Positions 20,246-59,330 of a stretch of DNA of 64,000 bases are shown here, one piece after another. The DNA lies in NCBI GenBank assembly GCA_002347855.1, contig DDYE01000017.1, positions 188,839 through 252,838 on the forward strand. The letters run 5' to 3'. The stretch is from Fidelibacterota bacterium UBA2242. Its GTDB lineage: Bacteria; Fidelibacterota; UBA2242. How positions within the stretch are numbered: the stretch's first letter is position 1; the number at the start of each line of letters is the position of its first letter. The notes under the pieces are model-generated. The model saw only the letters and a list, made by a program, of their open reading frames with translations. It was not told the DNA's origin and made no database searches. The position numbers and the translations under genes were made by a program.

Positions 20246-20261
20246 GACAAAACTCCTTCAA

Positions 20262-20873: not shown

Positions 20874-21006
20874 TGGTTTCCCTTCTCTTTGTTCTTGTGC
20901 ATTGATCTTAAAACCACTTATAAAGACGTAAAAAAAATAACTATAAGGAAAAAGAACGAATTCTTCTTTTTTGTTTTCATAGCGACCTCCTAATTAATCT
21001 TATTAA

Positions 21007-22017
21007 TTATTTAATCTTACCATAACGAAGAATAACTCCTTCTGAATTTGCATTTACTGGTTGTACTCCCACTGCCCATCCCAAATATTTATTGATAAAA
21101 CATAAAGAAGCGATATTATTCACATTCATCTCTCCTGGAAGATACTCCCATGTTAGTCCACCATCTGTTGTTTTAATAATTGCATACTTTCCTGCTCCCG
21201 GATTAGTGGCTAACCATCCGTTTAATGGATCGACAAAAAATAATTCATTAACACCTAAAGATGGTGGCCATGATTCTGCTGATCTCTGAATCCATGTATT
21301 TCCCCCATCAGTTGTCCGAAAAAATCCAAGCCAATCGTTATCATTACCTCCAACCCACCCATGGAATTGATCCACAAACTGAATTGATGTTAAATATGAA
21401 ACGTATGGCACGTTTAACTTTCTTATTGTCCATGTTAGTCCAATGTCTGTAGTTGATAGAATTGTTCCGCCAAAACCACACACCCAAATATTTTCTTCAT
21501 CAACTATCGAAATATGTGTAAGAGTATGTACATCTTGAGGTGCTACATCTTGCCAAGTTTCTCCTCCATCCTCAGTTTTAAGCAAAATACCAATACTACC
21601 CAAATCTCCTCTACCCCCTACAACAAAACCGGTGTTTTTATCTAAAAAATTAATATCACGATAACGTCCGCCTTTTAAATCATCATTGTATCCTAGCTCC
21701 CAATTTTTTCCACCATCTATTGTTTTTAAAATGGAATACCTCCCACAAATCCAACCGTTATTCTTATCCACAAAATCGACCGCAAATAAAGTCTCATTAA
21801 CCGGGCTTATCTGATTACCCCATGTTTCGCCCCCATCTTCTGAATTAAGAATTAGACCACTATCTCCAACGACCCAGCCATTATATTCATCTACAAAATC
21901 TACATCATATAACCTTGCCGTTATCCCGCTTTTAATCTTGGTCCAGACATATATCTCATTATAATTACTTATATCTTTACCACATCCAAAGATGATTATT
22001 AAACTAATAAGACACAT
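21007..22017 (-). CDS. BNR/Asp-box repeat protein (Ycf48-like beta-propeller), probable lipoprotein; ORF extends to 22158
   Basis: repeated DGGxTW motifs (DGGETW, DGGKNW, DGGNTW, DGGLTW); lipobox-like IFGC near likely start. Confidence 0.7.
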   Translation of the reverse strand: MCLISLIIIFGCGKDISNYNEIYVWTKIKSGITARLYDVDFVDEYNGWVVGDSGLILNSEDGGETWGNQISPVNETLFAVDFVDKNNGWICGRYSILKTIDGGKNWELGYNDDLKGGRYRDINFLDKNTGFVVGGRGDLGSIGILLKTEDGGETWQDVAPQDVHTLTHISIVDEENIWVCGFGGTILSTTDIGLTWTIRKLNVPYVSYLTSIQFVDQFHGWVGGNDNDWLGFFRTTDGGNTWIQRSAESWPPSLGVNELFFVDPLNGWLATNPGAGKYAIIKTTDGGLTWEYLPGEMNVNNIASLCFINKYLGWAVGVQPVNANSEGVILRYGKIK

Positions 22018-22222
22018 CAATTTATATTTATAAGACCTGAAATGATTAAGAATAATTTGAAAATGGTTACTGATATTAAGAAAAGTATCCATTTGGTATA
22101 GTGGCTGTAGTATTGGTTCAGCGGAAACGCACTTCGCCATTTTCACACTGCCAGCCATCTTAGAAATTCCTTTTCATAACGTTGCCATTATATTCTTATT
22201 ATAAACAATACATAGTAGGAAA

Positions 22223-24916
22223 TTAAAATTCAAGAAAAATTTTCCAATTTTTCTCTGATAACGCTCTAAACGACTTGATTGTCGCTGTTCCGCCGCCAGT
22301 GATCCAGTTATAACCCTGGTAGTTCTGCCCGCCCGGACCGATTGCCAGCGGACGGCTGTAATAGTCGGCATCCATCCCGTAGGTGAAACTGCCCTCGATG
22401 GTATTGTTGTAGACGCTTGGTTCATCGGTGGCATAAACCTGAATCCCGGCTACTCTGGTCGAGTCACCGGAAGTGACCAGGTTGTCGGTCATATCCGACA
22501 ATCCGGCGTAATAACCATAGATGCCACGTGTACAGGCGGTGATGGTATTTTTATCGACAATTGCGTTGTTGGAGTTATATAGATATATGCCATAAGTGCA
22601 GTTGGAAATGGTATTATTCCGGATTGTGGGATTGCTATAATAGGCATATAATCCATAATTCGCATAAGAAATAGTTGAGTTCTCGATGATACAATTTCCA
22701 TCAATTGCCGAATAATAGAAACGGATACCCCACCAGTTACTGCTGCCGGAGCGGGTGAAAGTGGTGTTATTGCATTTAAGACCACCCACAACTCTTAATT
22801 GTATATTCGATCCAAAAGACAAATTGCTGTTATTGAATTCAAATGTAATTCCCGATGGGATAGAGTAATTTTGGCTGAAGGAGATGGTCAGATTATTTGC
22901 GTAAATTCTGTTTCCGCTGGAGGCATCTGTTAGAGCGGAAGCAAGGGATGGATATAAGCCTTTTATCGCCGTTCCATCATACAGGCGGATGTCGGGATTG
23001 AGGGTGGCGCCGGCTTCGACGATGATTGTGCCTCCAGCAGAGGTGATATTATAACCGTTTAGATTTACCGATGCACCGGAACGAATATTAAGTGTCACAC
23101 CGCTACTCACGGTAACATTTCCTATGACAATTATGGTACCGCCCCACGTAGTATTCTGTGAAATAGTACCGGATACACCGTGTGCATAGTTTAATGAAGG
23201 GTCGCCCAAAATATTATACTTTTCAAAATAATCTTTTGCTGTATATTCACTAATTGGATAATAATTGAGAAATTTGATTTTTGCCTCTACCGTCATTTCC
23301 CCAAATGAAGTTTTAATATCATCATATATTGAGGAAAATAAACATTTTTCAAGACGATCATCTGGATACCATTGAGTTGGTCTTGACGAACCCCAAAATC
23401 CAACCGCAGCTTTGTTTGATTCTCTCAACCATGTCTCCCCAAAACATTCACTTCCGTAATCAAATTTACCTGTTAGACATGCAAAACTGAAAATCAGGGG
23501 AAGTTTATAACTGTTGGTTAAATTCCGCACTTGACTCTGAGACAACGGTGGTCCATCTGCCCAAGATGTTTCCGAACCATGTCCGGAATATACCCCAAAT
23601 ATTCTACCGTTATTAAAAGCATTGATCACCTGTGTTGTAGTAGCATTGTAAGTATGACAATATAGTTTATCACTGGTATATCCTTCCGGATCAAGGTAAT
23701 TTGAAATTACATTATTATGAGTTCCTTCGGAAATAGTATAATTATCATTGCTGGCCATAAATACTGCTTTTTTAATCCAGTCAAGTGTACTCCAGTCTTG
23801 GGTCTCATAATCAATCTGTTTATTTACAATGTTGCTTAACTGGGTTGTCGTTTCAACAGAAAATCTGCCAACAAATACATCCGGGAGCCAATCACCATCC
23901 ATCAAAGAATACTTCAAGTCAGATGCTGTATTGCAATAATCTCCTGTAAAGGTGGGAATGTATGCCACATCTCCTACCAGAAGTACATTTTCAACCGGAG
24001 GATCCCAATTGTTATAGGCATTGATGATATAGTTTCTTATTCCATTTGCAGTCTGATCTGCCAAATCGGATTTTTTTACCACCGTTACATCGAATCCCAA
24101 ATTCTCTTTATGAGAGGCAAAAGATGAAATTGTATTGTAAAAATTATCATGACAGATTATTAAAAAAGTGCTCGGCAATTCAGTTGCTGTTTTCATTAAA
24201 ACTGCACTCTTTTGAGATTTATTATTGAAGGAAACGGAATTAACTATTTGATCGAATAACTCTGATTGATACCTTCTGATTTCTAACTGTGTGGAAGATG
24301 ACTTATCGGTATTAAAATACAATTTAAAAGTCACGTTAGTATAGACTTTAAGTTTAGCTTGTACTGGATTGTATTGAATCGGAAATACCGTTATTTGATA
24401 AAGGTTGTGTTTTCGCAATAAACCCAAATCTGTAATTTCGAAAATATTATCAGGATAATATTTGTCAGTTTTATAAATATCATCATCAAATTCAAAGGGT
24501 TTATACTCAGGAGTTTTGCTGACAGGATACTGCAACGGATAAATTTTTGTCATTCCTTTTTCCGCAATATTCAGTTTTTCAACAGTACTGGAAATAATCT
24601 CCACCATTGGATTTGCGTCGTAAGGAAGTTCAACTATTTTTCTGAATACCGGTAGCTGAGGTTTACCTAATTCCGTCGTACTCATACCATCCTCAAATGT
24701 CAATTTAGAGAATATACCATTTTCTGTTTCCAAACGCTCAGAGTAAAAATCATCGACATTGAACTGAATAATGATTTCACCTTCTGATTCAGACAGCACT
24801 TTGATTTCCGTTTTAGGATTGCTCACATCACTAAGCAAGATTTTCTGTTTTGATTCTTGCGCTAATACAAGGGATAATGAAATAAGAATAACAAATGAAA
24901 ATCGTTTGAGTTTCAT
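22223..24916 (-). CDS. peptidase C25 (gingipain-like) family protein with C-terminal parallel beta-helix repeats; lacks a T9SS CTD
   Basis: signal peptide; catalytic-type His (VYSGHGSE) and Cys (FSFACLTGKF); beta-helix region nearly identical to 17537-20245 paralog. Confidence 0.75.
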   Translation of the reverse strand: MKLKRFSFVILISLSLVLAQESKQKILLSDVSNPKTEIKVLSESEGEIIIQFNVDDFYSERLETENGIFSKLTFEDGMSTTELGKPQLPVFRKIVELPYDANPMVEIISSTVEKLNIAEKGMTKIYPLQYPVSKTPEYKPFEFDDDIYKTDKYYPDNIFEITDLGLLRKHNLYQITVFPIQYNPVQAKLKVYTNVTFKLYFNTDKSSSTQLEIRRYQSELFDQIVNSVSFNNKSQKSAVLMKTATELPSTFLIICHDNFYNTISSFASHKENLGFDVTVVKKSDLADQTANGIRNYIINAYNNWDPPVENVLLVGDVAYIPTFTGDYCNTASDLKYSLMDGDWLPDVFVGRFSVETTTQLSNIVNKQIDYETQDWSTLDWIKKAVFMASNDNYTISEGTHNNVISNYLDPEGYTSDKLYCHTYNATTTQVINAFNNGRIFGVYSGHGSETSWADGPPLSQSQVRNLTNSYKLPLIFSFACLTGKFDYGSECFGETWLRESNKAAVGFWGSSRPTQWYPDDRLEKCLFSSIYDDIKTSFGEMTVEAKIKFLNYYPISEYTAKDYFEKYNILGDPSLNYAHGVSGTISQNTTWGGTIIVIGNVTVSSGVTLNIRSGASVNLNGYNITSAGGTIIVEAGATLNPDIRLYDGTAIKGLYPSLASALTDASSGNRIYANNLTISFSQNYSIPSGITFEFNNSNLSFGSNIQLRVVGGLKCNNTTFTRSGSSNWWGIRFYYSAIDGNCIIENSTISYANYGLYAYYSNPTIRNNTISNCTYGIYLYNSNNAIVDKNTITACTRGIYGYYAGLSDMTDNLVTSGDSTRVAGIQVYATDEPSVYNNTIEGSFTYGMDADYYSRPLAIGPGGQNYQGYNWITGGGTATIKSFRALSEKNWKIFLEF

Positions 24917-24934
24917 TTAAACCTCCTTTGTTTG

Positions 24935-26028
24935 TTACCAATTACCATGGGGTCCACCGTATGCGCCCATATCGTTACGGCTGCCGTCATGGTCGTTATA
25001 TTGTTCTAAAGGATTACCGGCATCTATACATGGTGAATTGGGAAGTAAGTGAAAATCTTCCATAGTAAAGTCAACGAATTTCGGATTGGTATTTAAATTG
25101 CCCTCTCCAGGCCAACCATTTTCAATACATGAATAAGTAATATTGAGCTCTGTAACATAAAAGGAGTCAATTTTAACCTGGGAGTTTTCATTGCCCCAGA
25201 GAATATTATTTGTAACATTATCCTTTCCTAATGGTTCCATTCCGACATATAATCCCGCATTGGCGTTGTAGCATATTATATTATTTTCAACCAAAGGTTT
25301 AGGTTTCCCTATTGTTATTCCATTGAATGTATTTTTAATAATAATATTGTTTCTAATCACTGGTTGTAAATAGGCAAGTCCGTCAAATGCCCATGTATCT
25401 ATTCCAGTAATACAATTTCTAATAATATTATTTTGCACCAGGGCTTCAGAATTTTGCAAACAAATACCAAACCCTTCGAAATTTTGAATCAGATTATTCT
25501 GAATTATGATGCTAGAATACCAACAAGTTATACCCATGGCAAGGACCCTACTTTCAATATTATATATCAGCGATGCGTACTCAACTCTGGAAAAAGAAAT
25601 GATAGAGCTACTGTCTGCGGTTTCAGAGAAGTAAATACATCCCCAGTTGTGATCTGACGCTCTTGTAAATATTATTGGATCGGTTTTTGTCCCCTCGGCT
25701 ATGAGTTTGCCATCTACTCGTAAAAATCCAATGTCTATTGTCGAATCGATCCAGTCAAAATCGGCATCATTTATAGTTCCTATCTTGCCCGATTTAAATT
25801 TAATCGTAACACCAGGCTCAATAACAAGCATTTTACCTTGCGGCACGCGGGCAGCACCATCTATATAAAAAGGAGAATCACTCTTCTTAATTGTTCCCCA
25901 TAAATCCTGATATAGATTGTATTCAATATATAAATTGTCTTCATTGTTGATGGGATTCTCTTGACATGCGCCAAGCGTTAGCAAGATTCCCATTAATACT
26001 GTCAGTATCGTTTTCGGGATCATTATCG
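24935..26028 (-). CDS. parallel beta-helix repeat protein, probable lipoprotein (ORF extends to 26149; likely start MIPKTIL...)
   Basis: beta-helix repeats (NNIIRNCITG..., NNIICYNANAGLYV...); signal peptide with LGAC. Confidence 0.7.
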
Positions 26029-26378
26029 TTTCCTCCGATTTGTTGTATTGCCTCAAATTAAAGTTCAAAATATTCCCTTCCACTTTGTTAGACAAAATCA
26101 TCATTCTTAGCGCAATCCCTCCTTCTTCCATTTGCTCAGGAAAAGACAACTACTCGATTTTCCTCGCTTTTTTCATTGAAGACTCTATTTGCTTCTGGCA
26201 TAATATATACACTGGGGGGGTAATGTCAAGAGATTTTTTTAAATTTGGAAAGTTTCAAGACATGGTATCCAGTTGGCAAGCATAAATTGGCTTAAGATCA
26301 TCTTTTTGAGGAGTTAAAGATTTTGATAAAGAGAGTTAGGGAAGTCTATGGGATCGAAATGCGAGCTTTCTCGAGTAG

Positions 26379-43935: not shown

Positions 43936-45603
43936 TTATTTAAGAATTAACATTTTGCGAAATTGACGATTTCCGGTCGTTTCCAGGGCATAGAAATAAA
44001 TTCCACTCGGTAAATGGTCAGCTTTCAGGACATACCGATAATCACCCGGCGGGAATTGTTGCGCGTCAATTAGTCGAGCGACAAATTGACCGCTTATATT
44101 GTATAGACTCAAATTCACGATACTGGATTGACTAAGATGAAAATTGATAAATGTTGTAGCATTAAAGGGATTGGGATAGTTCTGCTCAAGGTAAAAACCG
44201 GCTAGCGGGCGGGTCTGGTCGGTTGGTTTGGTCCGTAATACAATCGCGACGCTATCATCGGTGACCAGTTTAATAGCGTCAGCAACAATGTAAGTGCCTT
44301 GCCGGGCAGCATTTGAGATGATAACGGCATGTGCCGGGTCGTAGGAGAAAGTATATTTCCCGATGAAATTCCATTGCGAACCCTTGACGGTTTGGTCTAC
44401 TCTGACCGTGTCAATACCTTTTGCATGACGAATGATAAAAGGAGTGTCGAGACAGCGATTAGAAGCGGCTACCCACCAGGCGTAGAGCTGGCACTCGGTG
44501 GTCTTATCGAGAGTAACATCAAAAATGGCTTGCTTGTCGCCAGTACCCTGCGTGTTTAGCATAGCTTTGGTCGTTCCCCAATAGCCGGGATTAGCGCTGG
44601 GGAACCAATCGTTTCCAATTAAAGTGCAAGCCGAATCGCCCGTATCGATTATCGTCTCAAATTTATTAGAAAGCGGTGAGCGTACGGAGTCGCGATTCAC
44701 AATTGCCAGAATGGTTGGAATTTTACGATATTCTGAGGGATGATTAATATAAGTACTGCCAATTGTCATCTGAGTCGAACCGCCACCATCGAGATTCATG
44801 GCGTCGCTGCAACCTAAATTGAGCAAAATCTGAGCAAGTTCGGTAAGACTCACGCCCTGACTGTTTGTCTGACGACCATCGGCGGTCAGCAAAATTACAT
44901 GCTTATTGGTAGTAAATCCAACCGCAGTGCGTGGATCATTGTTATCCAAACCAACTCCTGAGCCCCACATAATCTCTTCGTTGTAGGTCAGATTGATTTG
45001 CCCATTCTTTAACAAAGTAGGGGCGCCACCGATACCAACTAACAAGTTAGTCAAAGGCGTACCCTGTTCGGGAGTAGGAGTTGGTTTGGGGTTAGGGTCA
45101 TTATAGCTGTAGGGAAGTGGAGCATTAAAGCGATAAATGCTCTGAGCCGTGCTGCCAAAATGATAAATCCAGTTGAGAGATGGATTAAAATTACGATCTA
45201 AGCTGAAGAAACTGCGAATGACAGGATAGGTCAGGCTATTTCGCGTGACTGTAGCAACATTCTGGGCTTTGAGCAAGTCGGGGTAAAGGACGGCGGAATA
45301 GGAAGTGCTACCACCGAAAAAACCACCATTCACGGCGGCAAAAGCACCAAATTGAACGGTTAATGCAGGTAAAATATCTGGAGTGGTGGTAATATAGGGA
45401 CGCACGGCGATGTTCGACTGATTCAAATCCACATCGAAATAAAAAATATTGAGGGCAGGGCTGACACGAGTCCCTTGAAATAACCGAACTCCCGCCGGGA
45501 GTGAATATTGATTCGTAATTTCTGACCAGGAGATATCGCTCTGCGCTGGTAGAATTACCACTAAACAGAGAGAAAGGAAAGCGATTTTTAAATAAGCCTT
45601 CAT
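43936..45603 (-). CDS. phosphodiester glycosidase family protein with T9SS C-terminal sorting domain (ORF extends to 45702)
   Basis: NLDGGGST motif; C-terminal YLEQNYPNPFNATTFINF...IYFYAL CTD; signal peptide at the second Met. Confidence 0.7.
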   Translation of the reverse strand: MKAYLKIAFLSLCLVVILPAQSDISWSEITNQYSLPAGVRLFQGTRVSPALNIFYFDVDLNQSNIAVRPYITTTPDILPALTVQFGAFAAVNGGFFGGSTSYSAVLYPDLLKAQNVATVTRNSLTYPVIRSFFSLDRNFNPSLNWIYHFGSTAQSIYRFNAPLPYSYNDPNPKPTPTPEQGTPLTNLLVGIGGAPTLLKNGQINLTYNEEIMWGSGVGLDNNDPRTAVGFTTNKHVILLTADGRQTNSQGVSLTELAQILLNLGCSDAMNLDGGGSTQMTIGSTYINHPSEYRKIPTILAIVNRDSVRSPLSNKFETIIDTGDSACTLIGNDWFPSANPGYWGTTKAMLNTQGTGDKQAIFDVTLDKTTECQLYAWWVAASNRCLDTPFIIRHAKGIDTVRVDQTVKGSQWNFIGKYTFSYDPAHAVIISNAARQGTYIVADAIKLVTDDSVAIVLRTKPTDQTRPLAGFYLEQNYPNPFNATTFINFHLSQSSIVNLSLYNISGQFVARLIDAQQFPPGDYRYVLKADHLPSGIYFYALETTGNRQFRKMLILK

Positions 45604-45616
45604 AACCAATCTTAAA

Positions 45617-48025
45617 TTAAAAGCCACACTGATAAATCGAGAAGCTAAGTGCTGGTAGTTGGACACTGAATCCGTTTTCCAGCAGGCGAGGTGGTTCAGC
45701 ATTTAAGAGTGGTGCTATTCTCTTAATTTTAAGCCAGAGCGGAAATGGAATAAATTGAGACACAGGCACGGTACTTTTATTCAAAACGATTATAAAGCGT
45801 TCCCGAACATCGCCGCGGGTAAAAGCCCAGAGGTTTTTATCAACATACAGGGTGCGGTAATCACCGCGCCGCAGGGCGGTATGTTTTTGGCGCAGTTTGA
45901 GTAAGGCGCTGACACGTGCGAGTTGTTGCTTTTCGAGGGGCTGGAGTTGCTCGCCGAATCGCATCATGCGTCGATTATCCGGGTCGTTTGCCCCGGTCAT
46001 GCCGAATTCGTCGCCATAGTCAATAATAGGTACGCCGGGGACGGTCAGTAGATAGCCAAGGTAGAGGTACTCTTTCTGATAAGCGTTAGGATTATCCACC
46101 GATATGGGATTATCACGCCAGGCGGCGGCTGTTCCATCTGAGGAAAGGGTCAGGTCGCCATCGAAGAAAGCCATCATGCGAACCTGGTCGTGGCTATCCA
46201 TGATGTTGCCCATTAGATTGTTATAGCCATAGACCTCAAAAGATTTCCTGAGAGTAGCTTCCAGTTCGCGGAAGTCACCGCGTTCTTCGACGAAAGTGCG
46301 GCGAGCAATGAAAAATTGGATAAAATTGAATTGAGACTCGAGAAGTCCGTTATTGACATAGGATTTTATCAGTTGATGACTACCGTAGCACTCGCCAATT
46401 TGATAAATATTGAGGGGACGATGAGGATTGACCTTATTTTTAATTTTGCGGTTGAGAGTTTTCCAGAATTCATAGGGTACATGTTTGGTTGCGTCGTGGC
46501 GGAAGCCATCGAGATTAGCTTTTTTAAGCCACCAGATAGCGTTATTCGTCATAGTTTCGAGCGCCGCTCGGGAATTTTGATAATCGAAGGAAGGCAAAAA
46601 AGTATCAAACCAGGTGGTAAGACGATACTCATCCCAGCGACGAATATTGAGAGTGCCATCGGGCAATTCGACTTTTCCGTACCAATCGCGATGCTTTTGA
46701 TAGTAGGTATGCTCGATGTGGGTATGATTAGATACGAAATCGAGCAGGACCTTGATATTATGGCGATGAGCCAGTGCTACCAATTTTTTAAATTCATCGA
46801 AGCTACCGAAACGCGGCTCGGTTTCTCTAGCTGAGACTGGCCAGTAGCCGTGGTAGCCAGTAAAAAAGCGATGTGGTTCAGGCCATTCCTGATAGGCTTT
46901 ATTAGTCGTTTTGTTGACGGGTGAAATCCAGAGAGTGTTAATTCCCAGGCTGTCGAAATAGCCTGCATTGATTACCTGTTTTAATCCGGCAAAGTCGCCG
47001 CCCTGAAAATTAGCCCGCATATCGAGTTGAGAATGCTGAACCGGCTGATCGTTGTCGGGATTACCATTTTTAAAGCGATCAATCATAAGAGCATAGATAA
47101 CAGCGTCGTTCCAGATAAAGGTGCTATTGGGCAGAGGCGTACCGTTTTTCAGCCAGAGAGTAACGATATTACCGGGTTGTTTGTGGTACAATGCCACGAT
47201 GCGTAAGACCTGGATGGCACGTTTCTGACGCAGTGGTTTTAAATCAATATCGAGGGTCTGATTATGGTAATGATAGTAAGCGGGATTATATAGCTGATTA
47301 TCGCACAAGACGATAATCTCCATCTGGGTCGAGTCGCCTAACAACTCGACTGCCAGAGAGACTGTATCCGATCTTGTCATGGGATTAAAATAAACACCCG
47401 TGATTTGATTGGCATAGGGTGATTCTACTCTTTTGACGGAATTGAAGTAACCGAAGCCATTATCAACTTTTTCAGGATTCTGCGGGTCGTAAATTTCGGC
47501 TTTGTCTACTACGAATTGGTACTCGTAAATACCATCATCCAGCAGCACTTCACGGGTGAAAGTGCCATCGCCGTCTTCGTCCGCCATTGGCAAAGAGGAA
47601 CGATTCCAGTCGTTAAAATTGCCCATAAGGAAAATCGCTTGTGGCTTCTTTGGTGGTTTGTAGGAGAAAGTAACCGGAATTTTGGCTTTTACAATGACAG
47701 GCAAGATCAACTCTTGCGATTGATTGCTGAATTGAAGCAGACTCAAACCAGAAAAATTAGCATTAGGGGTCAGGATTATTTTAGCGGAGTCCGGCTGATA
47801 AACTACCTGGATGTCGGGATTGGGACGAAAAGTCGGTCTGTATTTGCGAGCAGAGAAAATTTCGTTGATAGAAAAGGAAGTACTTTTACCGGCTTCGATC
47901 TGCAGGAATTCAATTAATTCCGGTGGTTTTGTACTTTGATAGGAGCGCCAGCAAGTTTGGAATAGGAATAAAGGCAGTAAAAATGTTAGAATAAGACCTA
48001 CGAGAGAGATGTGTTTCACTGACAT
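45617..48025 (-). CDS. GH13 alpha-amylase family glycoside hydrolase, secreted
   Basis: GH13 region II DGFRHDATKH; signal peptide. Confidence 0.85.
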   Translation of the reverse strand: MSVKHISLVGLILTFLLPLFLFQTCWRSYQSTKPPELIEFLQIEAGKSTSFSINEIFSARKYRPTFRPNPDIQVVYQPDSAKIILTPNANFSGLSLLQFSNQSQELILPVIVKAKIPVTFSYKPPKKPQAIFLMGNFNDWNRSSLPMADEDGDGTFTREVLLDDGIYEYQFVVDKAEIYDPQNPEKVDNGFGYFNSVKRVESPYANQITGVYFNPMTRSDTVSLAVELLGDSTQMEIIVLCDNQLYNPAYYHYHNQTLDIDLKPLRQKRAIQVLRIVALYHKQPGNIVTLWLKNGTPLPNSTFIWNDAVIYALMIDRFKNGNPDNDQPVQHSQLDMRANFQGGDFAGLKQVINAGYFDSLGINTLWISPVNKTTNKAYQEWPEPHRFFTGYHGYWPVSARETEPRFGSFDEFKKLVALAHRHNIKVLLDFVSNHTHIEHTYYQKHRDWYGKVELPDGTLNIRRWDEYRLTTWFDTFLPSFDYQNSRAALETMTNNAIWWLKKANLDGFRHDATKHVPYEFWKTLNRKIKNKVNPHRPLNIYQIGECYGSHQLIKSYVNNGLLESQFNFIQFFIARRTFVEERGDFRELEATLRKSFEVYGYNNLMGNIMDSHDQVRMMAFFDGDLTLSSDGTAAAWRDNPISVDNPNAYQKEYLYLGYLLTVPGVPIIDYGDEFGMTGANDPDNRRMMRFGEQLQPLEKQQLARVSALLKLRQKHTALRRGDYRTLYVDKNLWAFTRGDVRERFIIVLNKSTVPVSQFIPFPLWLKIKRIAPLLNAEPPRLLENGFSVQLPALSFSIYQCGF

Positions 48026-51579: not shown

Positions 51580-53803
51580 AATTGTCTTTCATTCTGCATC
51601 TCCCGCGATAATTGATCGTGACAATCCCAATGTAAGCCTTTTGGCATTAGCCCTTGGATTACTGGCAATGGTAACTCAATTGGGATTAGTGCGGATTACG
51701 GCTTTTACTTTTTACGGCAATGAGCTTACGATTTGTATTGCCATCGGTAATTGGTTACTATGGACGGGTATCGGAAGTCTTTGGGGGAGGCGACTGGCGC
51801 AGCATTTTCAAAAGACGATACATCTGATAATTATTGGCACAGGGTACGCCATTATTGTATTAGCGACTGTCTATGCTTTGACCCTGAGTCGCCCGATCTG
51901 GGGACTGACTCCCAGTGAGGTAGTTGGTGTTGTTCCTATTTGGCTCTGGACTCTGTTCATCTTTAGTTTTCCAGGCATTATCAATGGTCTATTTTTCCCG
52001 ACCTTAGTGCAATGGCTACAATCACGGATGACAGGATATCCGGTAAAAAATATATACATTGCAGAAGTTATGGGGTCGGCGATTGGTGGGATTTTCTTTG
52101 CCAGTCTGGTAGTACTACAAATCTCTACCTTCTTAATTATTCATCTATCAGTTACGCTGCTTGCTTTAGCAATTGGATTTTTATTGATAACAAGAAAGCG
52201 ACAGCTAATTTATATTTTTTCCCTGCTAACAGTCTGTTTTATCAGTGCCTACTGGGGAATCCCAGCCCTTGTGCAATACAAATGGAAACCAATGCCGGTT
52301 CTTAAATTTGTCGAGTCGCCCTATCAAACTTATACCATGATTGCTTATGGTGATGTCAAGAGTTTATATGGAGATAGCGAACCCATCTGGACTTATGGAG
52401 ATCGTGAACGCTCTGAAGAGTTAGTGCATTTTGGCTTACTCAATCATCCCAATCCTCGCAGTATTTTGATAATAGGTTACTTTAATTCGGACATAGCTTT
52501 CGAACTCTGCCAATATCCTTCTATTCAGCAAGTTACCTATGTTCAGATGGACAAAATTTTGCTTGAGTTAACTAAAAAAATGTTCAGGCATGACTCGCTT
52601 TGTTTGCCGGTAAAAACAATCACAGGCGATCCGATAGAATATTTGTCCGAGATAAGCACAAAATACGATATAGTTTTATTGAATGTACCACTGCCGACGA
52701 CGGCGAGCTGGAATCGTTTTTACACGCGTGAATTTTACCGTATGGTCGAGGCTCATCTTAATCCAGAAGGTCTAATGACACTTTCTCTGCCAGGGGGAGA
52801 AGAATATTTTACTGCGGAAGAAAGTGATTTTTTAAAAAGCATTGACACAACCCTCGCTACGGTTTTTAGGTGGCGAAATTGGATACCGGGGTTGACAGTG
52901 CATCTACTGGCTGGCAATCGTCCGCTCTATGGTGATCTGGATTTTATCAGTGAGCAACTTATTCAGAGAGGAATAAAGACTCATTATGTCAATGTCTATT
53001 ATTTGAAAGATCGTTTAGCGCCGAGTCGCAGGGTTTTTCTATATGAGCAATTGGCAAAAAGTCAAAAGCCTTTAATCAATAGTCGTGCTCGACCGATTGG
53101 TTACTATTTTGATACCATTCTCTGGGATCAGCGCACGGGTGGCTGGATAAAGAATATCTACCGTGGGCTGCATGGCATTGGGAGCTTATATTCACTTGGT
53201 GTGCTGGTTATCGCGCTTGGAGTGCTATCAATGTTTGCCCGAAAGAGCCGAGCCAATCTTTCGGTTTTCACAATCTTTGGTATCGGTTTTATGACAATGA
53301 GTTTAGAATCAGTGTTCCTGATTTTGTATCAGAGTTATGTAGGGAGTTTATACTTCCATCTCGTCTTTTTGACATTTGCTTACATGTCAGGCTCTATGCT
53401 GGGAGCATACCTTTTCCAGATTCAACGCCAGCGAAAAAGATTGTACTTAATTCTGGTTCTTATGTTGGGTTTGCCATTTTTAGGGCTGGTGATTCTCGGT
53501 TTTAAAATTTCACCTATTTTAGTAGCAAGTATTATCGGCTTAGCACTTTTTTCAAGTGGAATGCTGGTGGGATATAGTTTCTTATTGTTGACGGCTCAGG
53601 CAGGTGATAGGGAGGGAGAGGCGTTGGGACGAATTGCGGGTAGATGCTACGCTGCTGATATTGGCGGTGCAACGCTGGGAGTCTTTTTAGTAGCAATAAT
53701 TATAATACCCATCTATGGATTACCTGCCGCTTTGATATTGAATTTAGTTATAGGCTTAGTGCTCCTAATCGCTAACTTGTTTGCCGGTAAAATGTCTATT
53801 TAA
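51551..53803 (+). CDS. polytopic membrane protein with spermidine-synthase-like domain (fused MFS/spermidine synthase type); start uncertain
   Basis: many TM helices flanking a soluble aminopropyltransferase-like fold; 29-bp overlap with FGE gene. Confidence 0.55.
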   Translation: MLKKSCSLNRIVFHSASPAIIDRDNPNVSLLALALGLLAMVTQLGLVRITAFTFYGNELTICIAIGNWLLWTGIGSLWGRRLAQHFQKTIHLIIIGTGYAIIVLATVYALTLSRPIWGLTPSEVVGVVPIWLWTLFIFSFPGIINGLFFPTLVQWLQSRMTGYPVKNIYIAEVMGSAIGGIFFASLVVLQISTFLIIHLSVTLLALAIGFLLITRKRQLIYIFSLLTVCFISAYWGIPALVQYKWKPMPVLKFVESPYQTYTMIAYGDVKSLYGDSEPIWTYGDRERSEELVHFGLLNHPNPRSILIIGYFNSDIAFELCQYPSIQQVTYVQMDKILLELTKKMFRHDSLCLPVKTITGDPIEYLSEISTKYDIVLLNVPLPTTASWNRFYTREFYRMVEAHLNPEGLMTLSLPGGEEYFTAEESDFLKSIDTTLATVFRWRNWIPGLTVHLLAGNRPLYGDLDFISEQLIQRGIKTHYVNVYYLKDRLAPSRRVFLYEQLAKSQKPLINSRARPIGYYFDTILWDQRTGGWIKNIYRGLHGIGSLYSLGVLVIALGVLSMFARKSRANLSVFTIFGIGFMTMSLESVFLILYQSYVGSLYFHLVFLTFAYMSGSMLGAYLFQIQRQRKRLYLILVLMLGLPFLGLVILGFKISPILVASIIGLALFSSGMLVGYSFLLLTAQAGDREGEALGRIAGRCYAADIGGATLGVFLVAIIIIPIYGLPAALILNLVIGLVLLIANLFAGKMSI

Positions 53804-55292
53804 TTGTTTCGCGATTAAATACCTGGGCGCTAAAAATTTGAATTTCGGTATTTTTATCTTTCCAGGCATCGCGGGGCAAGCCTGCTTTTAAACAGGTATG
53901 CTCTAAAAAGGTGAGGCGATCCCAGCCGTTTTCGGTCGCGACCTGAGGCAAGAGCAATCCCTGGTAATAGCCCCGTTTAATTATCAAACCGTGTTTGCCC
54001 ACTTCGATTAAGTTAATATCAGTTATCCGTTCCGGGACAGTCAGGACGGAAATCTCGATGGTGATGTCCTTCAGTTCCTTGGGACTGACCGGTTCGAAAC
54101 GCGGGTCGCGGAGAGCCGCAGACTGAGCTACTTCCATGACGGTTTCATAGAGCGGATATAGAGGTAAAATATAGCCGATGCAGCCCCGCAGTTCGTGTTG
54201 TTTTTCAAGGGTGACAAAGGCGCCGCGCTTTTCTTTTAGTCTGGGTGGGATGTCCTGTAAAGTTGGTAGCGGCTGGTTAGTTACTGCGGCTTTAACGGTC
54301 TTTTCGGCTAAATCCAATAGAAACAGCTGCTCATCACGGTTCAATTCGCCTTTTGTCAGAGAGTCAGCTTCTTTTGCCGAACTTTTTTTAGCTGAAGAAC
54401 CTGGTGCAGTATAGATAGCCGCTGCTAAATAACCAACGACACCGGATTTATCGCCGTAAGGACTGTCACCGCTGTTTGCCAGTTTCAGGATTTTCAGCTG
54501 GTTAGCGCCTACGGTTTTTGTTGCAATGATAGTAGCGCAGATTGGTCCGCCACCACAGGCTTCGTAATCCTGAGCGACCAGTCCGCTATAGAAACTGCGT
54601 GCATCTAATTTGCTCAGGGCAGTCACGAGACGCTGGTCAATTTTTTGGCATTCGGTATAGGAGTGGTAATGTGAAAGATCGCTGGAAGCGACAATCAATA
54701 AGTCATACCGCTGCAGCAACTTTCCCAATTGTTTACCTAAGGCTTCGATGACAGTCCAATTCATACTGCCGATAACAATCGGCACTACTGACGTATTCGG
54801 CAAGACGGTCTGGATGAAGGGTAGTTGCACTTCCAAAGCATGTTCACCTCTTTCAAAACGGCGAAAAGTATGTCCGCTTTCTGAAAGCTTGACTAATCCG
54901 TCGGCAGTAGGCAGGGCTTGTGCCAGGTTTTGAGCGACACTGATTTTACCCAGTGGCGTCTCGTAGGTTTCGCCCGAATAGACTGCGGCATATTCGAAGT
55001 ACTCAACATGACTGGGAGCAATCACGACCACAGCCTGATATTGTTGTCCGACCAGTTCTTTATAACCATAAGCTGCCACGCCGCCACTGTAAACATAACC
55101 AGCATGAGGAGAAATTAAAGCCCGCGGCTTGACAGGCAGGGATTTTTGTCCTGCTTCGGCAAGATACTGATTAATCTGAGCAGTCAGAATTTTGCTATCT
55201 GCCGGATAAAAAGTGCCAGCTGCCGCCGGAGCCCGATTCTGGCCAGTTGCCGAGCCCCAGACTAATAAGCTTAATAACATAATTCTCACCAT
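53796..55292 (-). CDS. fusion of AmmeMemoRadiSam system protein B (Memo-like) and protein A (AMMECR1 domain), with N-terminal signal peptide (ORF extends to 55352)
   Basis: Memo motifs ISPHAGYVYSGGVAA...VVVIAPSH; AMMECR1 motif RGAFVTL...LRGCIGY; signal peptide MVRIMLLSLLVWGSATG. Confidence 0.75.
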   Translation of the reverse strand: MVRIMLLSLLVWGSATGQNRAPAAAGTFYPADSKILTAQINQYLAEAGQKSLPVKPRALISPHAGYVYSGGVAAYGYKELVGQQYQAVVVIAPSHVEYFEYAAVYSGETYETPLGKISVAQNLAQALPTADGLVKLSESGHTFRRFERGEHALEVQLPFIQTVLPNTSVVPIVIGSMNWTVIEALGKQLGKLLQRYDLLIVASSDLSHYHSYTECQKIDQRLVTALSKLDARSFYSGLVAQDYEACGGGPICATIIATKTVGANQLKILKLANSGDSPYGDKSGVVGYLAAAIYTAPGSSAKKSSAKEADSLTKGELNRDEQLFLLDLAEKTVKAAVTNQPLPTLQDIPPRLKEKRGAFVTLEKQHELRGCIGYILPLYPLYETVMEVAQSAALRDPRFEPVSPKELKDITIEISVLTVPERITDINLIEVGKHGLIIKRGYYQGLLLPQVATENGWDRLTFLEHTCLKAGLPRDAWKDKNTEIQIFSAQVFNRETIK

Positions 55293-55309
55293 CCTCTCCT
55301 GGAACATAA

Positions 55310-56437
55310 TTAGCTCCATACGCCGGGAATGGGTGTCTGGCAGAAACGACACTTGCCCCGACTTAAATTATTGGTTGTTATCATATAGCCCGAGCGTTCT
55401 ATCAATAGACGATGACAATTCGGACAATAAGTGTTTTCAGCAGGATGCCCGGGGACATTACCGATGTAAACATATTTCAATCCTGTGTCCAAGCCAATTT
55501 TATGAGCAGTTTCAAGCGTCTTGACCGGAGTTGGTGGTAGATTTTGCATGCGGTATTGCGGATGAAAACGCGTGAAATGAAGGGGGACATCAGGACCGAG
55601 ATTTTTTAAAATCCATTGACACATCTGGCGAATCATTTGCGGGTCGTCATTGTGTGTGGGAATGACGAGATTGACAATTTCCAGCCAGACCCCATTCTGT
55701 TTTACCCGGACAAGCGAATCCAGTACCGGCTGCAGCTGCCCGTCCGTTATCTCAGAGTAAAATTTCTCGGAAAAAGCTTTAAAGTCAATTTTAATTGCAT
55801 CCACCACCTGACATAAATCATTCATAGGTTGTTCGTTGATGCAACCGTTCGAAATAATCACATTGCGTAAACCCAGTTGGCGCGCCTGAACCGCCGTGTC
55901 ATAAATGTACTCAGTAAAAACAGTTGGTTCGGTGTAAGTATAGGCGATGGTTGGTGAACCTACCTGACGAGTGAGCTGGGCTAATTTTTCGGGTGAGTAG
56001 TATTCAAAAGATACATCTTCCGGTTTCGCCTGTGAGATATTCCAGTTTTGGCAAAACTTGCAGTGGATATTGCATCCGACGGTAGCCACTGAAATAGCCG
56101 TCGTGCCAGGTAAGAAGTGAAAGAGCGGCTTTTTCTCGATTGGATCGTTGTTTATGCTGCACAGGCGTCCGTAAACCAGCGTCTTGTAGGTGCCTTTCTG
56201 GTTTTCTCGAACACGGCAGTAGCCACGTTTACCCTCTGCCACTAAACAGGTTCTAGGACATAACAGACAGCGTACTTTGTTATCAGGGAGTTTGACATAG
56301 TAGCGCGCCTCGGTGATATAAGGAGTGGTCTTCGAAAGGCTTTGGGCTTTGCTGTGGGTCAATAGCGTGGGGAAAAAGAGCAGCCCGCCCAAACAGACTC
56401 CCGATTGCAGGCAAAACTCGCGGCGCGTCAAAAGCAT
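55310..56437 (-). CDS. AmmeMemoRadiSam system radical SAM enzyme with Tat-type signal peptide (ORF extends to 56467)
   Basis: radical SAM CNIHCKFC; N-terminal Cys cluster; twin-arginine motif TRREFCL plus hydrophobic region. Confidence 0.8.
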   Translation of the reverse strand: MLLTRREFCLQSGVCLGGLLFFPTLLTHSKAQSLSKTTPYITEARYYVKLPDNKVRCLLCPRTCLVAEGKRGYCRVRENQKGTYKTLVYGRLCSINNDPIEKKPLFHFLPGTTAISVATVGCNIHCKFCQNWNISQAKPEDVSFEYYSPEKLAQLTRQVGSPTIAYTYTEPTVFTEYIYDTAVQARQLGLRNVIISNGCINEQPMNDLCQVVDAIKIDFKAFSEKFYSEITDGQLQPVLDSLVRVKQNGVWLEIVNLVIPTHNDDPQMIRQMCQWILKNLGPDVPLHFTRFHPQYRMQNLPPTPVKTLETAHKIGLDTGLKYVYIGNVPGHPAENTYCPNCHRLLIERSGYMITTNNLSRGKCRFCQTPIPGVWS

Positions 56438-56438
56438 T

Positions 56439-56906
56439 TTATTTCCCATCCAATTTAGTATCAACAATTTTGGCGACTTCCCGCAGACATTCTTCTTTTC
56501 CCAGGAGATTGCGCTTGGCAGTAAGCCGCACGAAGTAATTTTTCCGATAAAAAACTACACAACCCGGTCCTTGACTCGATTCCGTGCCTACCATAGCCGG
56601 TGTAAAAGTCTGATAGCGGCGATAGAGTCCGCGCGCATTCACTTCATCACTCAAAACAAAAACCTCGAGTAGCATCTGTTTAAAATCACTACTACTAATC
56701 TCTTGAGTAATCAATTTCTTGATTTGATAACCACTATAGAGTTGAAAGCTCTCACCTAAAATTTGTTTCAACTTATCAACTTTGGTGTAGTTATGTCTGG
56801 GCAAAACAATCCACTGCGGCAATTCCTGAGGCTTCAGAAAATATTTGCCTGTCGAACAACCTGTCAGGGCAATTATTACCACGATTAACCATTGCATCTT
56901 TTTCAT
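56439..56906 (-). CDS. lipoprotein of unknown function
   Basis: signal peptide with lipobox LTGC. Confidence 0.6.
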   Translation of the reverse strand: MKKMQWLIVVIIALTGCSTGKYFLKPQELPQWIVLPRHNYTKVDKLKQILGESFQLYSGYQIKKLITQEISSSDFKQMLLEVFVLSDEVNARGLYRRYQTFTPAMVGTESSQGPGCVVFYRKNYFVRLTAKRNLLGKEECLREVAKIVDTKLDGK

Positions 56907-58447
56907 AATAGTTGTCGCTCCTCGCCTTCTCTGATTACTATGATGCCGGCTTCACCATTAAGCGGGCATTTATTTTCGCAAATACCGCAACCAATACACA
57001 AATTTTCATCAACTTGCGGATATAAGACTATGCGCTTATTGCCATTGAGAGGGTCAATATATTCCTGGGGAATGACCTTAATAGCCTTATCGGGTAACGG
57101 GCAGTGTTCTTCACATACCAGACAATTTTCGTTGACTCGATAGGGAATACAGCGCTCTTTCAGGAAAATGGCTTTGCCCATTTTGACCTTCTGCTTTTCG
57201 GGCAATGCCAGCGGCTGGATTGCCTTTGTTGGACAAATCTGTCCACAGAGATTGCAATTGTACTCGCAATATCCATAGCGAAATTTTGCCAGCGGAGTAA
57301 GCAAACCTTCCCAGCCTGTTTCTAAGAAAGCTATTTGCAAACATTTTCCGGAAGTAGCGCAAATGCGAACACATTCACCGCAACGAATACATTGCGCCAT
57401 GAATTCATTTTCAGTGATAGCACCCGGTGGCCGAATCAGGCGGTCGGAATGGTGTGAATCCGGCTGATTGATTTTGAAGAAACCTGCTCCAATCAGACCA
57501 CCGAGCGTCGCGCCTAAGAAACCACGTCTTGAGAGGTCAATCTTACTGGTCATACGCCCTGGCGATTGCCAGTCATAAGTAATCGCAGCGGGCGGACATT
57601 GCGGTGCACAACTCAGGCAAAGGATACATTCGGATTTCTCGGTGATGTAGAAATCTTCCTCAATCGCAGCCATTTTACATTTGCGCCGACAAATGCCACA
57701 TTTAGTGCACAGGTTCTGGTCAACGCGCCGTTGCAAAGGACTCAATTTGGCAATTAAGCCGAGTAGTGCTCCTAAGAGACAAAGATGACGACACCAGAAC
57801 CGTCGTGTCAGATTGCTGAGTGCGAGGATTATCACCAAAATCAATACCGGGAGAAGCAAGTTGGTAAAAACCGGACTGGCAACCGGGAAAAGATAAGCGT
57901 TGAGCCGATCCTGAAAATTCATTAAAGTTTCCGAGAATATTCCCAGCTTAATCAAAATCGCCAGACTCGTATCAACCAGGAGAAAGAGGAAAGAGAGAAC
58001 AATAACACCCGAAGAACGCCACAAGAGCGGTAGCGGATCCATTAACCAGCTGTACTGAATTCCCAACAGAGCCAGCACGACAAATAACATCAATAAGCCC
58101 GTCTTGACGCTTCGCCAGAGTGGATTTATTTTTTTTAAATGCTGAGTAAAGATTTTGTCGTTTAAATCTATCACTGTTCCAAGAGGACAAACCCAGCCGC
58201 AAAAAGCCCGTCCCACGACGAAGGGCGAAAGCAAAACAATGAGAGCCACCAGAAAGATTAAATCGAAGTGACGATTGGCGATGAGCGGCATAGTTGCACT
58301 CAAGGGATCTAACCACAAGAACAATTCGGGCGGCAACCAGGGCTTAAAAGGATATGTGGCTTGCAAAATTGTAATTATGAAGACAAGAAGGAAAACAACC
58401 TGGACAAATTGCCGAAGGACTCTAACAGTTGTTAAGTTAAAAATCAT
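56903..58447 (-). CDS. membrane-bound polyferredoxin, NapH-like N-terminal domain fused to NapG-like C-terminal domain
   Basis: FCGWVCPLG motif, TM helices, two ferredoxin Cys clusters, internal SRRGFLGATLGGL twin-arginine-like segment, then four further CxxCxxCxxxCP clusters. Confidence 0.7.
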   Translation of the reverse strand: MIFNLTTVRVLRQFVQVVFLLVFIITILQATYPFKPWLPPELFLWLDPLSATMPLIANRHFDLIFLVALIVLLSPFVVGRAFCGWVCPLGTVIDLNDKIFTQHLKKINPLWRSVKTGLLMLFVVLALLGIQYSWLMDPLPLLWRSSGVIVLSFLFLLVDTSLAILIKLGIFSETLMNFQDRLNAYLFPVASPVFTNLLLPVLILVIILALSNLTRRFWCRHLCLLGALLGLIAKLSPLQRRVDQNLCTKCGICRRKCKMAAIEEDFYITEKSECILCLSCAPQCPPAAITYDWQSPGRMTSKIDLSRRGFLGATLGGLIGAGFFKINQPDSHHSDRLIRPPGAITENEFMAQCIRCGECVRICATSGKCLQIAFLETGWEGLLTPLAKFRYGYCEYNCNLCGQICPTKAIQPLALPEKQKVKMGKAIFLKERCIPYRVNENCLVCEEHCPLPDKAIKVIPQEYIDPLNGNKRIVLYPQVDENLCIGCGICENKCPLNGEAGIIVIREGEERQLL

Positions 58448-59330
58448 AGACTACTGGCCGAAATTTGTCGGTGTTGATTTCTCCCATACCTTCGGCGTTG
58501 GCTAATTGAAGGTACGGTAAAGTCTGTGGGGCAATGCCGAAGATTTTGGCGCCCCAAGCATCCACTAAAACACGGTCTGTGCCGGCAATTAACGTATTGA
58601 GTTGGTCAACATCTTCCAGATTTCCACCGGAAGGACCATTGCGACGTAAGACACGGTAGGCGTCGAGAATAGTCAAATTGGCTACGATGACGCGATTCAA
58701 GTCCACAATATTTTCGGCAAAGGGGCGATGAATACGCCCCCGGTTACCACCGATTAAACCCATTACATTCTTAAATCCCATCGTGATTTGGGTGGTGCCG
58801 TGCTGCTTTAGGATGGGCAGATTGATGATTTTATCGACTTTGAAGACTTCCTGGTGAATGAGCCAGCTTTTAAGCTGTCGAGAATTGGGAATAGGAGTTT
58901 CGATGAATTGATTATCGCGCACAAAACGTACTTCAGCGCCGTATTTTTCCGCATATTCGGGAATTCGGCAGCTTGTATAACTGCGTCGCGCATCATTGCA
59001 AGTATTATCCAGGATTAAAACATTAGCCGCGCCAGCTTGATAACACTGGCGGACCACTTCGGCAACTAATTCCGGATTAGTGGTAGCAGCATATTCCGGC
59101 GTACGGTCCCAACTCAAATTGGGCTTGAGTAGTACCCGTTCGCCCTTGCTGACAAACCGTTTTATTCCGCCGAGGAGCTCCAGAGCTTTACCGACCATAG
59201 CCGCAGGCAAACCATTTTTGACTAATACCAGGTCAGCGGGTGGGTTTGATGGAAAAGCGCTGTGAGGCAAGCCTGTTAAGACACCGCCGGTGATGATGGC
59301 AGTAGTCTTAAGAAATTGGCGACGATTCAT
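58437..59330 (-). CDS. DUF362 domain protein with Tat signal peptide
   Basis: MNRRQFLKTTAIITGG twin-arginine signal; DUF362-like body (paralog of 14440-15519 without the ferredoxin domain). Confidence 0.7.
   Translation of the reverse strand: MNRRQFLKTTAIITGGVLTGLPHSAFPSNPPADLVLVKNGLPAAMVGKALELLGGIKRFVSKGERVLLKPNLSWDRTPEYAATTNPELVAEVVRQCYQAGAANVLILDNTCNDARRSYTSCRIPEYAEKYGAEVRFVRDNQFIETPIPNSRQLKSWLIHQEVFKVDKIINLPILKQHGTTQITMGFKNVMGLIGGNRGRIHRPFAENIVDLNRVIVANLTILDAYRVLRRNGPSGGNLEDVDQLNTLIAGTDRVLVDAWGAKIFGIAPQTLPYLQLANAEGMGEINTDKFRPVVYDF

Follow-up and report, generated by a model that had tools for sequence, protein, structure and literature searches.

A NapH-NapG-like polytopic polyferredoxin with an internal twin-arginine segment and its probable pairing with an exported DUF362 protein in a Fidelibacterota bacterium

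The polyferredoxin family and its member in UBA2242

The closest described systems to the gene analyzed here are the NapGH quinol dehydrogenase (Brondijk et al. 2004; Kern & Simon 2008, as cited in PMC5449189) and a family of membrane proteins in which a NapH-like and a NapG-like part are joined. In E. coli as well as in Wolinella succinogenes NapH has four transmembrane (TM) helices with both termini in the cytoplasm (N-in/C-in), cytoplasmic CX3CP motifs and two [4Fe-4S] clusters, and NapG is exported through twin-arginine translocation (Tat) and carries four clusters. Searching genomes for internal Tat motifs that follow an even number of transmembrane domains (TMDs), Tooke, Babot, Chandra, Buchanan and Palmer (eLife 2017, 6:e26577, PMC5449189) described the so-called polytopic polyferredoxin (PFD) Q1NSB0 of the delta proteobacterium MLMS-1, which has homologs in many phyla and was called a NapH-NapG fusion. 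Fusions of Q1NSB0 to maltose-binding protein (MBP) and to AmiA in E. coli showed that export after TMD5 needs Tat and the twin arginines (RR), and release from Sec was caused by the low hydrophobicity of TMD5 together with positive charges downstream of it (PMC5449189). Here we analyze a gene of this kind in a 64,000 nt stretch of contig DDYE01000017.1 (assembly GCA_002347855.1) of Fidelibacterota bacterium UBA2242, hereafter the window. Its product, predicted to depend on both Sec and Tat, is probably the membrane electron-transfer subunit of a two-gene module, the other member being a Tat-exported DUF362 protein with a LarA-like fold.

The PFD gene of the window is a single intact open reading frame (ORF) with an ATG start and no internal stop codon, encoding 514 amino acids, 29 of them Cys. 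An earlier note on this DNA, made from the letters alone, had placed the gene at 56903-58447, which is exact, and had described one polypeptide with NapH-like and NapG-like modules; as checks it had proposed topology prediction, alignment with NapH and NapG and a search for a frameshift. The FCGWVCPLG motif, the TM helices and the two Cys clusters that it saw in the N-terminal half were all recovered: the motif lies at residues 82-90, followed by two CX2CX2CX3C ferredoxin motifs at residues 247-257 and 274-284, and four TM helices are predicted. A second NapH-type motif, RFWCRHLCLLGA (residues 216-227), reads CX3C-L (CRHLCL), the position of the Pro found in at least 90% of the aligned relatives being taken by Leu at residue 224 (codon 57776..57778). 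Further downstream DLSRR-GFLGATLGGLIGAGFF-K spans residues 304-325; within it SRRGFLGATLGGLIGAGFF covers residues 306-324, with SRR (306-308) directly ahead of the h-region (310-324). The C-terminal part had been said to hold four more CxxCxxCxxxCP clusters. Four clusters are indeed present, but only two show this canonical spacing (353-363, followed by Ala, and 484-494, followed by Pro) and the other two are variants, CX3CX2CX3CP at 394-405 and CX8CX2CX3CP at 433-449. Comparable non-canonical spacings are found at the two middle Cys motifs of NapG. The whole set of two CX3C(P), two ferredoxin and four C-terminal motifs fits the approximately seven clusters (three cytoplasmic, four extracytoplasmic) of the PFD family, and Pfam assigns two Fer4_5 (NapH-type) stretches as well as ferredoxin families to the protein.

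BLASTP of the window protein against the TM region of Q1NSB0, taken from eLife supplementary file 6, gave 32% identity with E 1e-34 (query 39-329 on Q1NSB0 42-362), in an alignment that is collinear from the loop after TM1 through the DLxRR-TM5 segment. Both proteins combine a TM domain of NapH type and cytoplasmic clusters with a NapG-like domain that has four clusters, RR standing immediately ahead of the last TMD; in both this TMD is weakly hydrophobic and followed by positive charges, the signature of Sec release. The window protein differs from Q1NSB0 in its phylum, in a shorter linker between ferredoxin motifs and RR (Q1NSB0 has about 30 extra residues) and in the missing Pro of the second CX3C motif. 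The window protein is thus a member of the published PFD family, and its interpretation as a NapH-NapG fusion is not new: such a fusion has previously served as a model substrate in work on cooperative Sec/Tat insertion, so that this copy adds only another phylum. The published work concerns the biogenesis of the protein and not its function, and the term DUF362 does not occur in the main text of PMC5449189. What is new here is the probable partnership with DUF362 and the linkage to AmmeMemoRadiSam genes.

We aligned the PFD family with hhalign to the E. coli K-12 proteins and found it to be homologous to both NapH (probability 99.3, E 2.4e-20, query 7-294 on NapH 25-281) and NapG (probability 99.5, E 2.5e-22, query 301-502 on NapG 7-206). 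Both homologies are direct and collinear with the two halves of the single chain. In the NapG alignment the internal SRR falls on the RRR of the NapG signal peptide, and RPPGA and all four Cys motifs are aligned as well. NCBIfam models divide the protein at the same place, with NapG over residues 303-505 (1e-28) and NapH/MauN at 1.5e-16. Domains and the order of electron-transfer logic are therefore those of NapH plus NapG, whereas the organization differs: one polypeptide takes the place of two, and the Tat signal lies inside a membrane protein and is presumably not cleaved, in contrast to NapG, which is soluble, is made as a protein of its own from a nap (or mau) operon and has its Tat signal at the N-terminus. 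Compared with NapH, the window protein has about 40-50 extra residues inserted after TM3 and before TM4, in addition to its altered second motif. NosR/NirI, RdhC/PceC and MauN share the NapH-type TM core, the CX3CP motifs and the C-terminal ferredoxin motifs with PFD, but have either an N-terminal periplasmic FMN_bind domain or no NapG-like domain. A Pfam scan found no FMN_bind domain in the PFD protein, and the NCBIfam match to NosR is partial (E 7.6e-10, residues 201-281 only).

The architecture recurs in many organisms. Among 5.8 billion proteins searched, more than 6,600 relatives of PFD were retrieved, and the best 120 cluster representatives were examined. Most of these are about 510 amino acids long and cover the query almost completely; they come from Marinimicrobia/Fidelibacterota, KSB1, Calditrichota, Actinomycetota and other phyla, and are annotated merely as '4Fe-4S binding protein' or 'polyferredoxin'. 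Among the matches listed the closest cluster is 95% identical and likewise 514 amino acids long. The full set of motifs is present in 112 of the 120 best homologs, RR or KR precedes the RPPG motif by about 32 residues in 116, and an alignment of 29 homologs (42-67% identity) leaves 28 of the 29 Cys and R308 invariant. Conservation of the PFD motifs is far beyond chance.

Topology and the internal Tat segment

Hydropathy places TM1 to TM4 at the positions given in the table and in addition shows a hydrophobic helix at residues 148-172. Across the family the N-terminus carries a charge of +3.2 and the two loops bearing the CX3C(P) motifs carry +4.7 and +4.9, while charges range from neutral to negative in the TM1-TM2 loop and throughout the TM3-TM4 insertion. 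Since they are net positive, the segment ahead of TM1 and the CX3C(P) loops are predicted to be cytoplasmic; the insertion, with its zero or negative net charge, is most likely exposed to the periplasm or placed at the membrane interface. The charge pattern supports for PFD the four-TM N-in/C-in topology established for NapH.

TM5 is the least hydrophobic helix of the protein. Summed on the Hessa scale its family mean is 5.3 compared to at most 2.2 for TM1 to TM4, and in the window protein 6.1 compared to -1.2 to 0.9; the scale values were simply added, so these figures are crude and approximate. TM5 is followed by positive charges, with a family mean of 4.0 Lys or Arg within 21 residues and K325, R336 and R339 in the window protein. 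That the internal segment is twin-arginine-like and likely acts as a signal-anchor had already been suggested in the earlier note. Its alignment with the NapG Tat signal, the invariance of R308 and the RR or KR in the large majority of homologs bear out the first suggestion, and the second is in line with the published experiments on the MLMS-1 homolog (PMC5449189) and with the pattern of charge and hydrophobicity. By analogy with that homolog, translocation of the C-terminal domain of the window protein is predicted to be Tat-dependent.

The protein would then be assembled in two stages. Sec would insert TM1 to TM4 of the NapH-like half co-translationally in N-in/C-in orientation, so that the two CX3C(P) and the two [4Fe-4S] ferredoxin motifs come to face the cytoplasm. 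Sec would release the Gly-rich and poorly hydrophobic TM5, with SRR before and positive charges after it, and Tat would insert TM5 and move the already folded NapG-like domain with its four [4Fe-4S] clusters into the periplasm, as was demonstrated for the homolog. The same principle, in which Sec inserts an even number of TMDs and RR then precedes a weakly hydrophobic TMD and an exported domain bearing a cofactor, applies to the actinobacterial Rieske proteins Sco2149 and QcrA and to the heme-molybdenum cofactor protein Sco3746 (fused MsrQ/MsrP-like), which are unrelated to PFD in fold and cofactors. Like PFD, Sco3746 and the Rieske proteins appear to be derived from, or split into, two-gene systems.

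DUF362 as neighbor and probable redox partner

The gene directly upstream of PFD encodes a DUF362 protein (PF04015, 172.2 bits compared to a gathering threshold of 24; 1.9e-50), and its stop codon overlaps the PFD start by 11 nt. We surveyed the neighborhood of PFD by scanning one genome per GTDB species, which yielded 80 PFD loci spread over a broad set of phyla, with the cultured Geotalea and Geomonas among the organisms. A DUF362 ortholog (phmmer E 1e-55 to 1e-89) adjoins PFD in 75 of these loci, and in 74 it immediately precedes PFD on the same strand, mostly with an overlap or a gap of a few bases. A clear RR signal was detectable on the DUF362 protein in at least 64 of the 75 loci, most of the remaining ones being truncated by contig ends. 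All-against-all clustering of the ORFs in the 80 loci revealed no third conserved gene, the other large clusters consisting of shadow ORFs on the opposite strand. Because of this near-obligate translational coupling we infer that the exported DUF362 protein acts as the periplasmic redox partner of PFD.

The AlphaFold2 (AF2) model of the DUF362 protein is confident, with a predicted local distance difference test (pLDDT) score of 90.6. When the model was compared to the PDB with Foldseek, all 18 significant matches were members of the LarA superfamily (probability 1.0, query-normalized TM-score about 0.5), namely lactate and malate racemases and LarA-like enzymes with a nickel-pincer nucleotide (NPN). 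This fold agrees with the placement of DUF362 and DUF2088 in the common Pfam clan CL0471 (PMC11770544). The relation emerges from the fold search only, as neither sequence nor profile searches with DUF362 had any match in the PDB. Identity to LarA is about 11-16%, and the match to the larger LarA is partial (TM-score about 0.3-0.4 on the target length, about 270 aligned columns).

Three residues, H177, K187 and H201, are invariant in DUF362. Their spacing is nearly that of H174, K184 and H200 in LarA, whose sequence was confirmed against 5HUQ_A, and H177 and K187 fall on H174 and K184 in an hhalign alignment that is weak and not significant (E 0.12). The position taken as equivalent to LarA H108, by inspection only, is an Asp. 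In LarA, K184 is reportedly the tether of the NPN and H200 a nickel ligand, and H108 and H174 are reported to be catalytic (Desguin et al. 2015). We regard the resemblance of the His/Lys/His residues to the LarA site as a lead rather than a result. DUF362 also differs from LarA in its Tat export and its Fe-S partner, for which LarA has no counterpart, and the window proteins that were scanned included no lar gene products.

The window encodes a second DUF362 protein at 14440..15519 on the minus strand (359 amino acids), which has no signal peptide and carries an inserted 2x[4Fe-4S] domain. It can be viewed as a cytoplasmic counterpart of the pair formed by exported DUF362 and polyferredoxin. 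Since this paralog contains its own clusters, DUF362 domains seem to take Fe-S partners recurrently.

Taken together, the periplasmic cluster chain of PFD would exchange electrons with the exported DUF362 protein, in either direction, and the membrane part would couple to the quinone pool as in NapGH, by analogy with which quinol coupling is proposed. As no conserved His is found in the TM helices of PFD, electrons cannot cross the membrane via hemes. Together with quinol coupling, a physical complex of the two proteins, the substrate and the direction in which electrons flow belong to the inferred part of this model. If the pairing is correct, it gives a large DUF family a defined redox partner and a cellular location, and it turns a polyferredoxin without assigned role into a testable two-subunit periplasmic enzyme.

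Several points weigh against this arrangement. Five of the 80 loci have no detectable DUF362 neighbor, one of them without upstream sequence, and in one further locus (L010) DUF362 is located downstream of PFD. To our knowledge no activity or cofactor has been reported for DUF362, and no quinone site has been defined even for NapH. For PFD the AF2 model reaches only moderate quality (pLDDT 66, and below 50 in the RR-TM5 region), for which reason the topology given above rests on sequence rules. Finally, the helix at residues 148-172 is hydrophobic in the window protein and can be read as a fifth Sec-type TM helix, which makes the TM count of this protein less than certain. Such a placement is disfavored because it would put the second CX3C motif and its strongly positive loop on the wrong side; across the family the helix is weakly hydrophobic and the charge pattern is opposed to it. 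The PFD profile matched only generic ferredoxin domains among PDB sequences (FwdF, HdrA, RnfB), and when folds similar to the PFD model were sought in the PDB no match had E < 1, which is uninformative since the model is moderate and no NapH-type structure was found.

The AmmeMemoRadiSam operon, other readings and further window features

In the window the genes for DUF362 and PFD are followed by those for a small lipoprotein, the AmmeMemoRadiSam radical S-adenosylmethionine (rSAM) enzyme and a Memo-AMMECR1 fusion. Three other metagenome-assembled genomes (MAGs) of Marinimicrobia/Fidelibacterota share the order DUF362-PFD-(lipoprotein)-rSAM-Memo/AMMECR1, down to a PFD identity of 46%. The lipoprotein between PFD and rSAM, whose match to DUF6599 is below threshold, is present in loci L086, L087, L092 and L093 and absent in L088. 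The rSAM enzyme of the window starts with MLLTRREFCLQSG..., a twin-arginine signal, the rSAM enzymes of the three MAGs all have RR signals, and 112 of the best 120 clusters of rSAM homologs carry an RR motif within their first 45 residues. The N-terminus of the Memo-AMMECR1 fusion looks like a signal or like that of a lipoprotein. The AmmeMemoRadiSam system thus looks, apparently, extracytoplasmic. If confirmed, an extracytoplasmic rSAM enzyme bears on the function of the AMMECR1/Memo/rSAM triad and raises the question of the source of SAM and of a low-potential electron outside the cytoplasm. Literature searches on DUF362, PF04015, AmmeMemoRadiSam and Tat signals on rSAM, AMMECR1 or Memo found no functional study and no paper that discusses an AmmeMemoRadiSam system outside the cytoplasm.

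We also approached the linkage from the rSAM side, using the rSAM enzyme as query to collect 80 metagenome loci with a 10 kb neighborhood. An RR signal was present on rSAM in 69 of them. DUF362 genes occur within 10 kb in 32 loci, and in roughly 28 a divergent DUF362 paralog is located directly upstream of rSAM, with a Tat signal in most of those checked. This subfamily matches the window DUF362 with E of about 1e-6 to 1e-10 (e.g. L089 5990-6997; L090 4884-5843; L096-L153). PFD is found within 10 kb in 5-7 loci. In single loci the slot upstream of rSAM is occupied by an NIL-2x[4Fe-4S] ferredoxin, or by FMN_bind and nitroreductase genes with ApbE nearby, which suggests that redox partners beside rSAM genes may be interchangeable.

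These observations raise the possibility that in this lineage PFD mainly donates electrons to the Tat-exported rSAM enzyme, DUF362 being a further component or a target. The cluster of an rSAM enzyme outside the cytoplasm would still need a reductant, and the five-gene order conserved in the phylum, the RR signals on rSAM and the DUF362, PFD, ferredoxin or flavin-related genes around it would all accord with such a donor. We nevertheless consider this rather unlikely. Outside the phylum, the rSAM enzyme lies within 10 kb in none of the 80 PFD loci and a Memo/AMMECR1 homolog is present in just one, compared to the 75 with DUF362. Electrons at the level of quinol are thermodynamically poorly suited to reduce the [4Fe-4S]2+ cluster of rSAM enzymes, there is no known supply of SAM outside the cytoplasm, and the joining of the genes in one operon may reflect co-regulation only. 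Because it is absent from the loci outside the phylum, the link between PFD and AmmeMemoRadiSam is treated as a rival or additional role and not as the general function of PFD. A more far-reaching version of the PFD-DUF362 pairing, to which we give little credence, would make the pair a widespread periplasm-facing oxidoreductase, with PFD as its link to the membrane and a LarA-fold catalytic subunit whose His/Lys/His residues resemble the nickel-pincer site of LarA; in Marinimicrobia and some other lineages it would supply electrons to, or be matured by, the Tat-exported AmmeMemoRadiSam proteins. A scan of the operon for sigma-70 promoters and terminators gave weak consensus matches only, none of them prominent at gene boundaries.

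The segment of RR and TM5 might alternatively not be a Tat anchor at all, leaving the NapG-like domain in the cytoplasm and the protein as a membrane-tethered, all-cytoplasmic polyferredoxin. The h-region is indeed short (15 residues) and weakly hydrophobic, and model confidence is low around it. However, RR or KR is held at a fixed position throughout the family and is aligned to the genuine Tat signal of NapG, export of MBP and AmiA by the homologous MLMS-1 segment depended on both RR and Tat, and a periplasmic location of the C-terminal domain has already been shown in a homolog. The conserved partner DUF362 has its own Tat signal and would need a redox contact in the periplasm. We consider a wholly cytoplasmic protein very improbable.

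Even less can be said for PFD being a genuine fused NapGH, i.e. the quinol dehydrogenase of a periplasmic nitrate reductase. NapG and NapH are its best named matches, but all scores remain far below the curated cut-offs: 100.2 bits compared to 269 for NapG NF007012, 87.7 compared to 178.85 for MauM-NapG TIGR00397, 60.7 compared to 213.05 for NapH TIGR02163 and 51.9 compared to 234 for NapH NF007013. Searching E. coli NapA, NapB, NapC and NapD by tblastn across the 64-kb window gave zero matches. With DUF362 as the sole conserved neighbor over the 80 loci, no nap-like gene is recurrent, and in place of NapA/B/C neighbors PFD has DUF362 as its partner. Since every curated cut-off is missed and nap genes are absent nearby, a true NapGH was ruled out; judged by these scores and the gene context, PFD is not an ortholog of NapG or NapH and not a Nap component.

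An assembly or sequencing artefact that merged adjacent napH-like and napG-like genes can practically be dismissed, because the same gene is found on independent assemblies (19 contigs drawn from NCBI, JGI and Logan carry the DUF362 neighbor at 100% identity, and at the four loci displayed the same 514-aa PFD gene was called), the ORF is intact without a frameshift, the closest cluster and the best homologs are of the same full length, and the architecture is repeated at the 80 further loci.

Table. Features of the PFD locus (positions in the window, residues of the respective protein)
Feature	Position	Strand	Evidence
Whole gene, 514-aa polytopic polyferredoxin (NapH-like + NapG-like fusion, PFD family)	56903..58447	-	ORF, Pfam, NCBIfam, best 120 homologs mostly full length
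TM1, residues 14-32	58352..58408	-	hydropathy; positive-inside count; AF2 helix 5-29
TM2, residues 61-80	58208..58267	-	hydropathy, AF2 model, charge pattern
FCGWVCPLG motif, residues 82-90, in strongly positive loop	58178..58204	-	F82, C83, G84, W85, C87, P88 and G90 invariant; Pfam Fer4_5
TM3, residues 114-135	58043..58108	-	hydropathy, AF2 model, charge pattern
Insertion of ~40-50 residues relative to E. coli NapH (148-197): weakly hydrophobic helix and polar loop	57857..58006	-	hhalign gap; charge/hydrophobicity; AF2 helices 138-167 and 172-185
TM4, residues 198-214	57806..57856	-	hydropathy, AF2 model, charge pattern
Second NapH-type motif RFWCRHLCLLGA, residues 216-227, in predicted cytoplasmic loop	57767..57802	-	motif, conservation, charge
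2x[4Fe-4S] ferredoxin motifs (C247-C257; C274-C284 followed by P), predicted cytoplasmic	57593..57709	-	Pfam, conservation, alignment with NapH C-terminus
Internal twin-arginine DLSRR (R307-R308), Gly-rich TM5 (310-324) and K325, predicted Tat-dependent signal anchor	57473..57538	-	NapG Tat signal alignment; alignment with DLGRRR of MLMS-1 PFD; conservation
NapG-like domain, four Cys clusters, predicted periplasmic	56933..57433	-	NCBIfam NapG 1e-28; hhalign E 2.5e-22; Cys invariance
DUF362, 297 aa, N-terminal Tat signal MNRRQFLK..., putative periplasmic redox partner	58437..59330	-	Pfam DUF362 1.9e-50; Tat signal; conserved neighborhood
Small 155-aa lipoprotein with LTGC lipobox and weak match to DUF6599	56439..56906	-	conserved only inside the phylum
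AmmeMemoRadiSam radical SAM enzyme, Tat-like signal MLLTRREFCLQSG...	55310..56437	-	TIGR04337 5.5e-120; synteny
Memo-AMMECR1 fusion (AmmeMemoRadiSam proteins B and A), N-terminal hydrophobic signal	53796..55352	-	start codon uncertain, 497-518 aa

Two other regions of the window were noticed. The segment 215..10247 on the plus strand is low in GC (26-38% compared to about 45% elsewhere) and contains genes for an 826-aa SNF2/ResIII helicase, a methyltransferase of Eco57I/MmeI type (1260 aa), an AAA_13 ATPase (743 aa) and a protein that partially matches DUF2851, besides a 212-aa ORF to which Pfam assigned nothing. The segment resembles a restriction or defence island gained by horizontal transfer. 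On the minus strand, 17537..26149 and 43936..45702 encode several large secreted proteins with Por_Secre_tail (sorting by the type IX secretion system), NosD/beta-helix repeats and a C25 (gingipain-type) peptidase, and these proteins indicate that this organism probably has a type IX secretion system.

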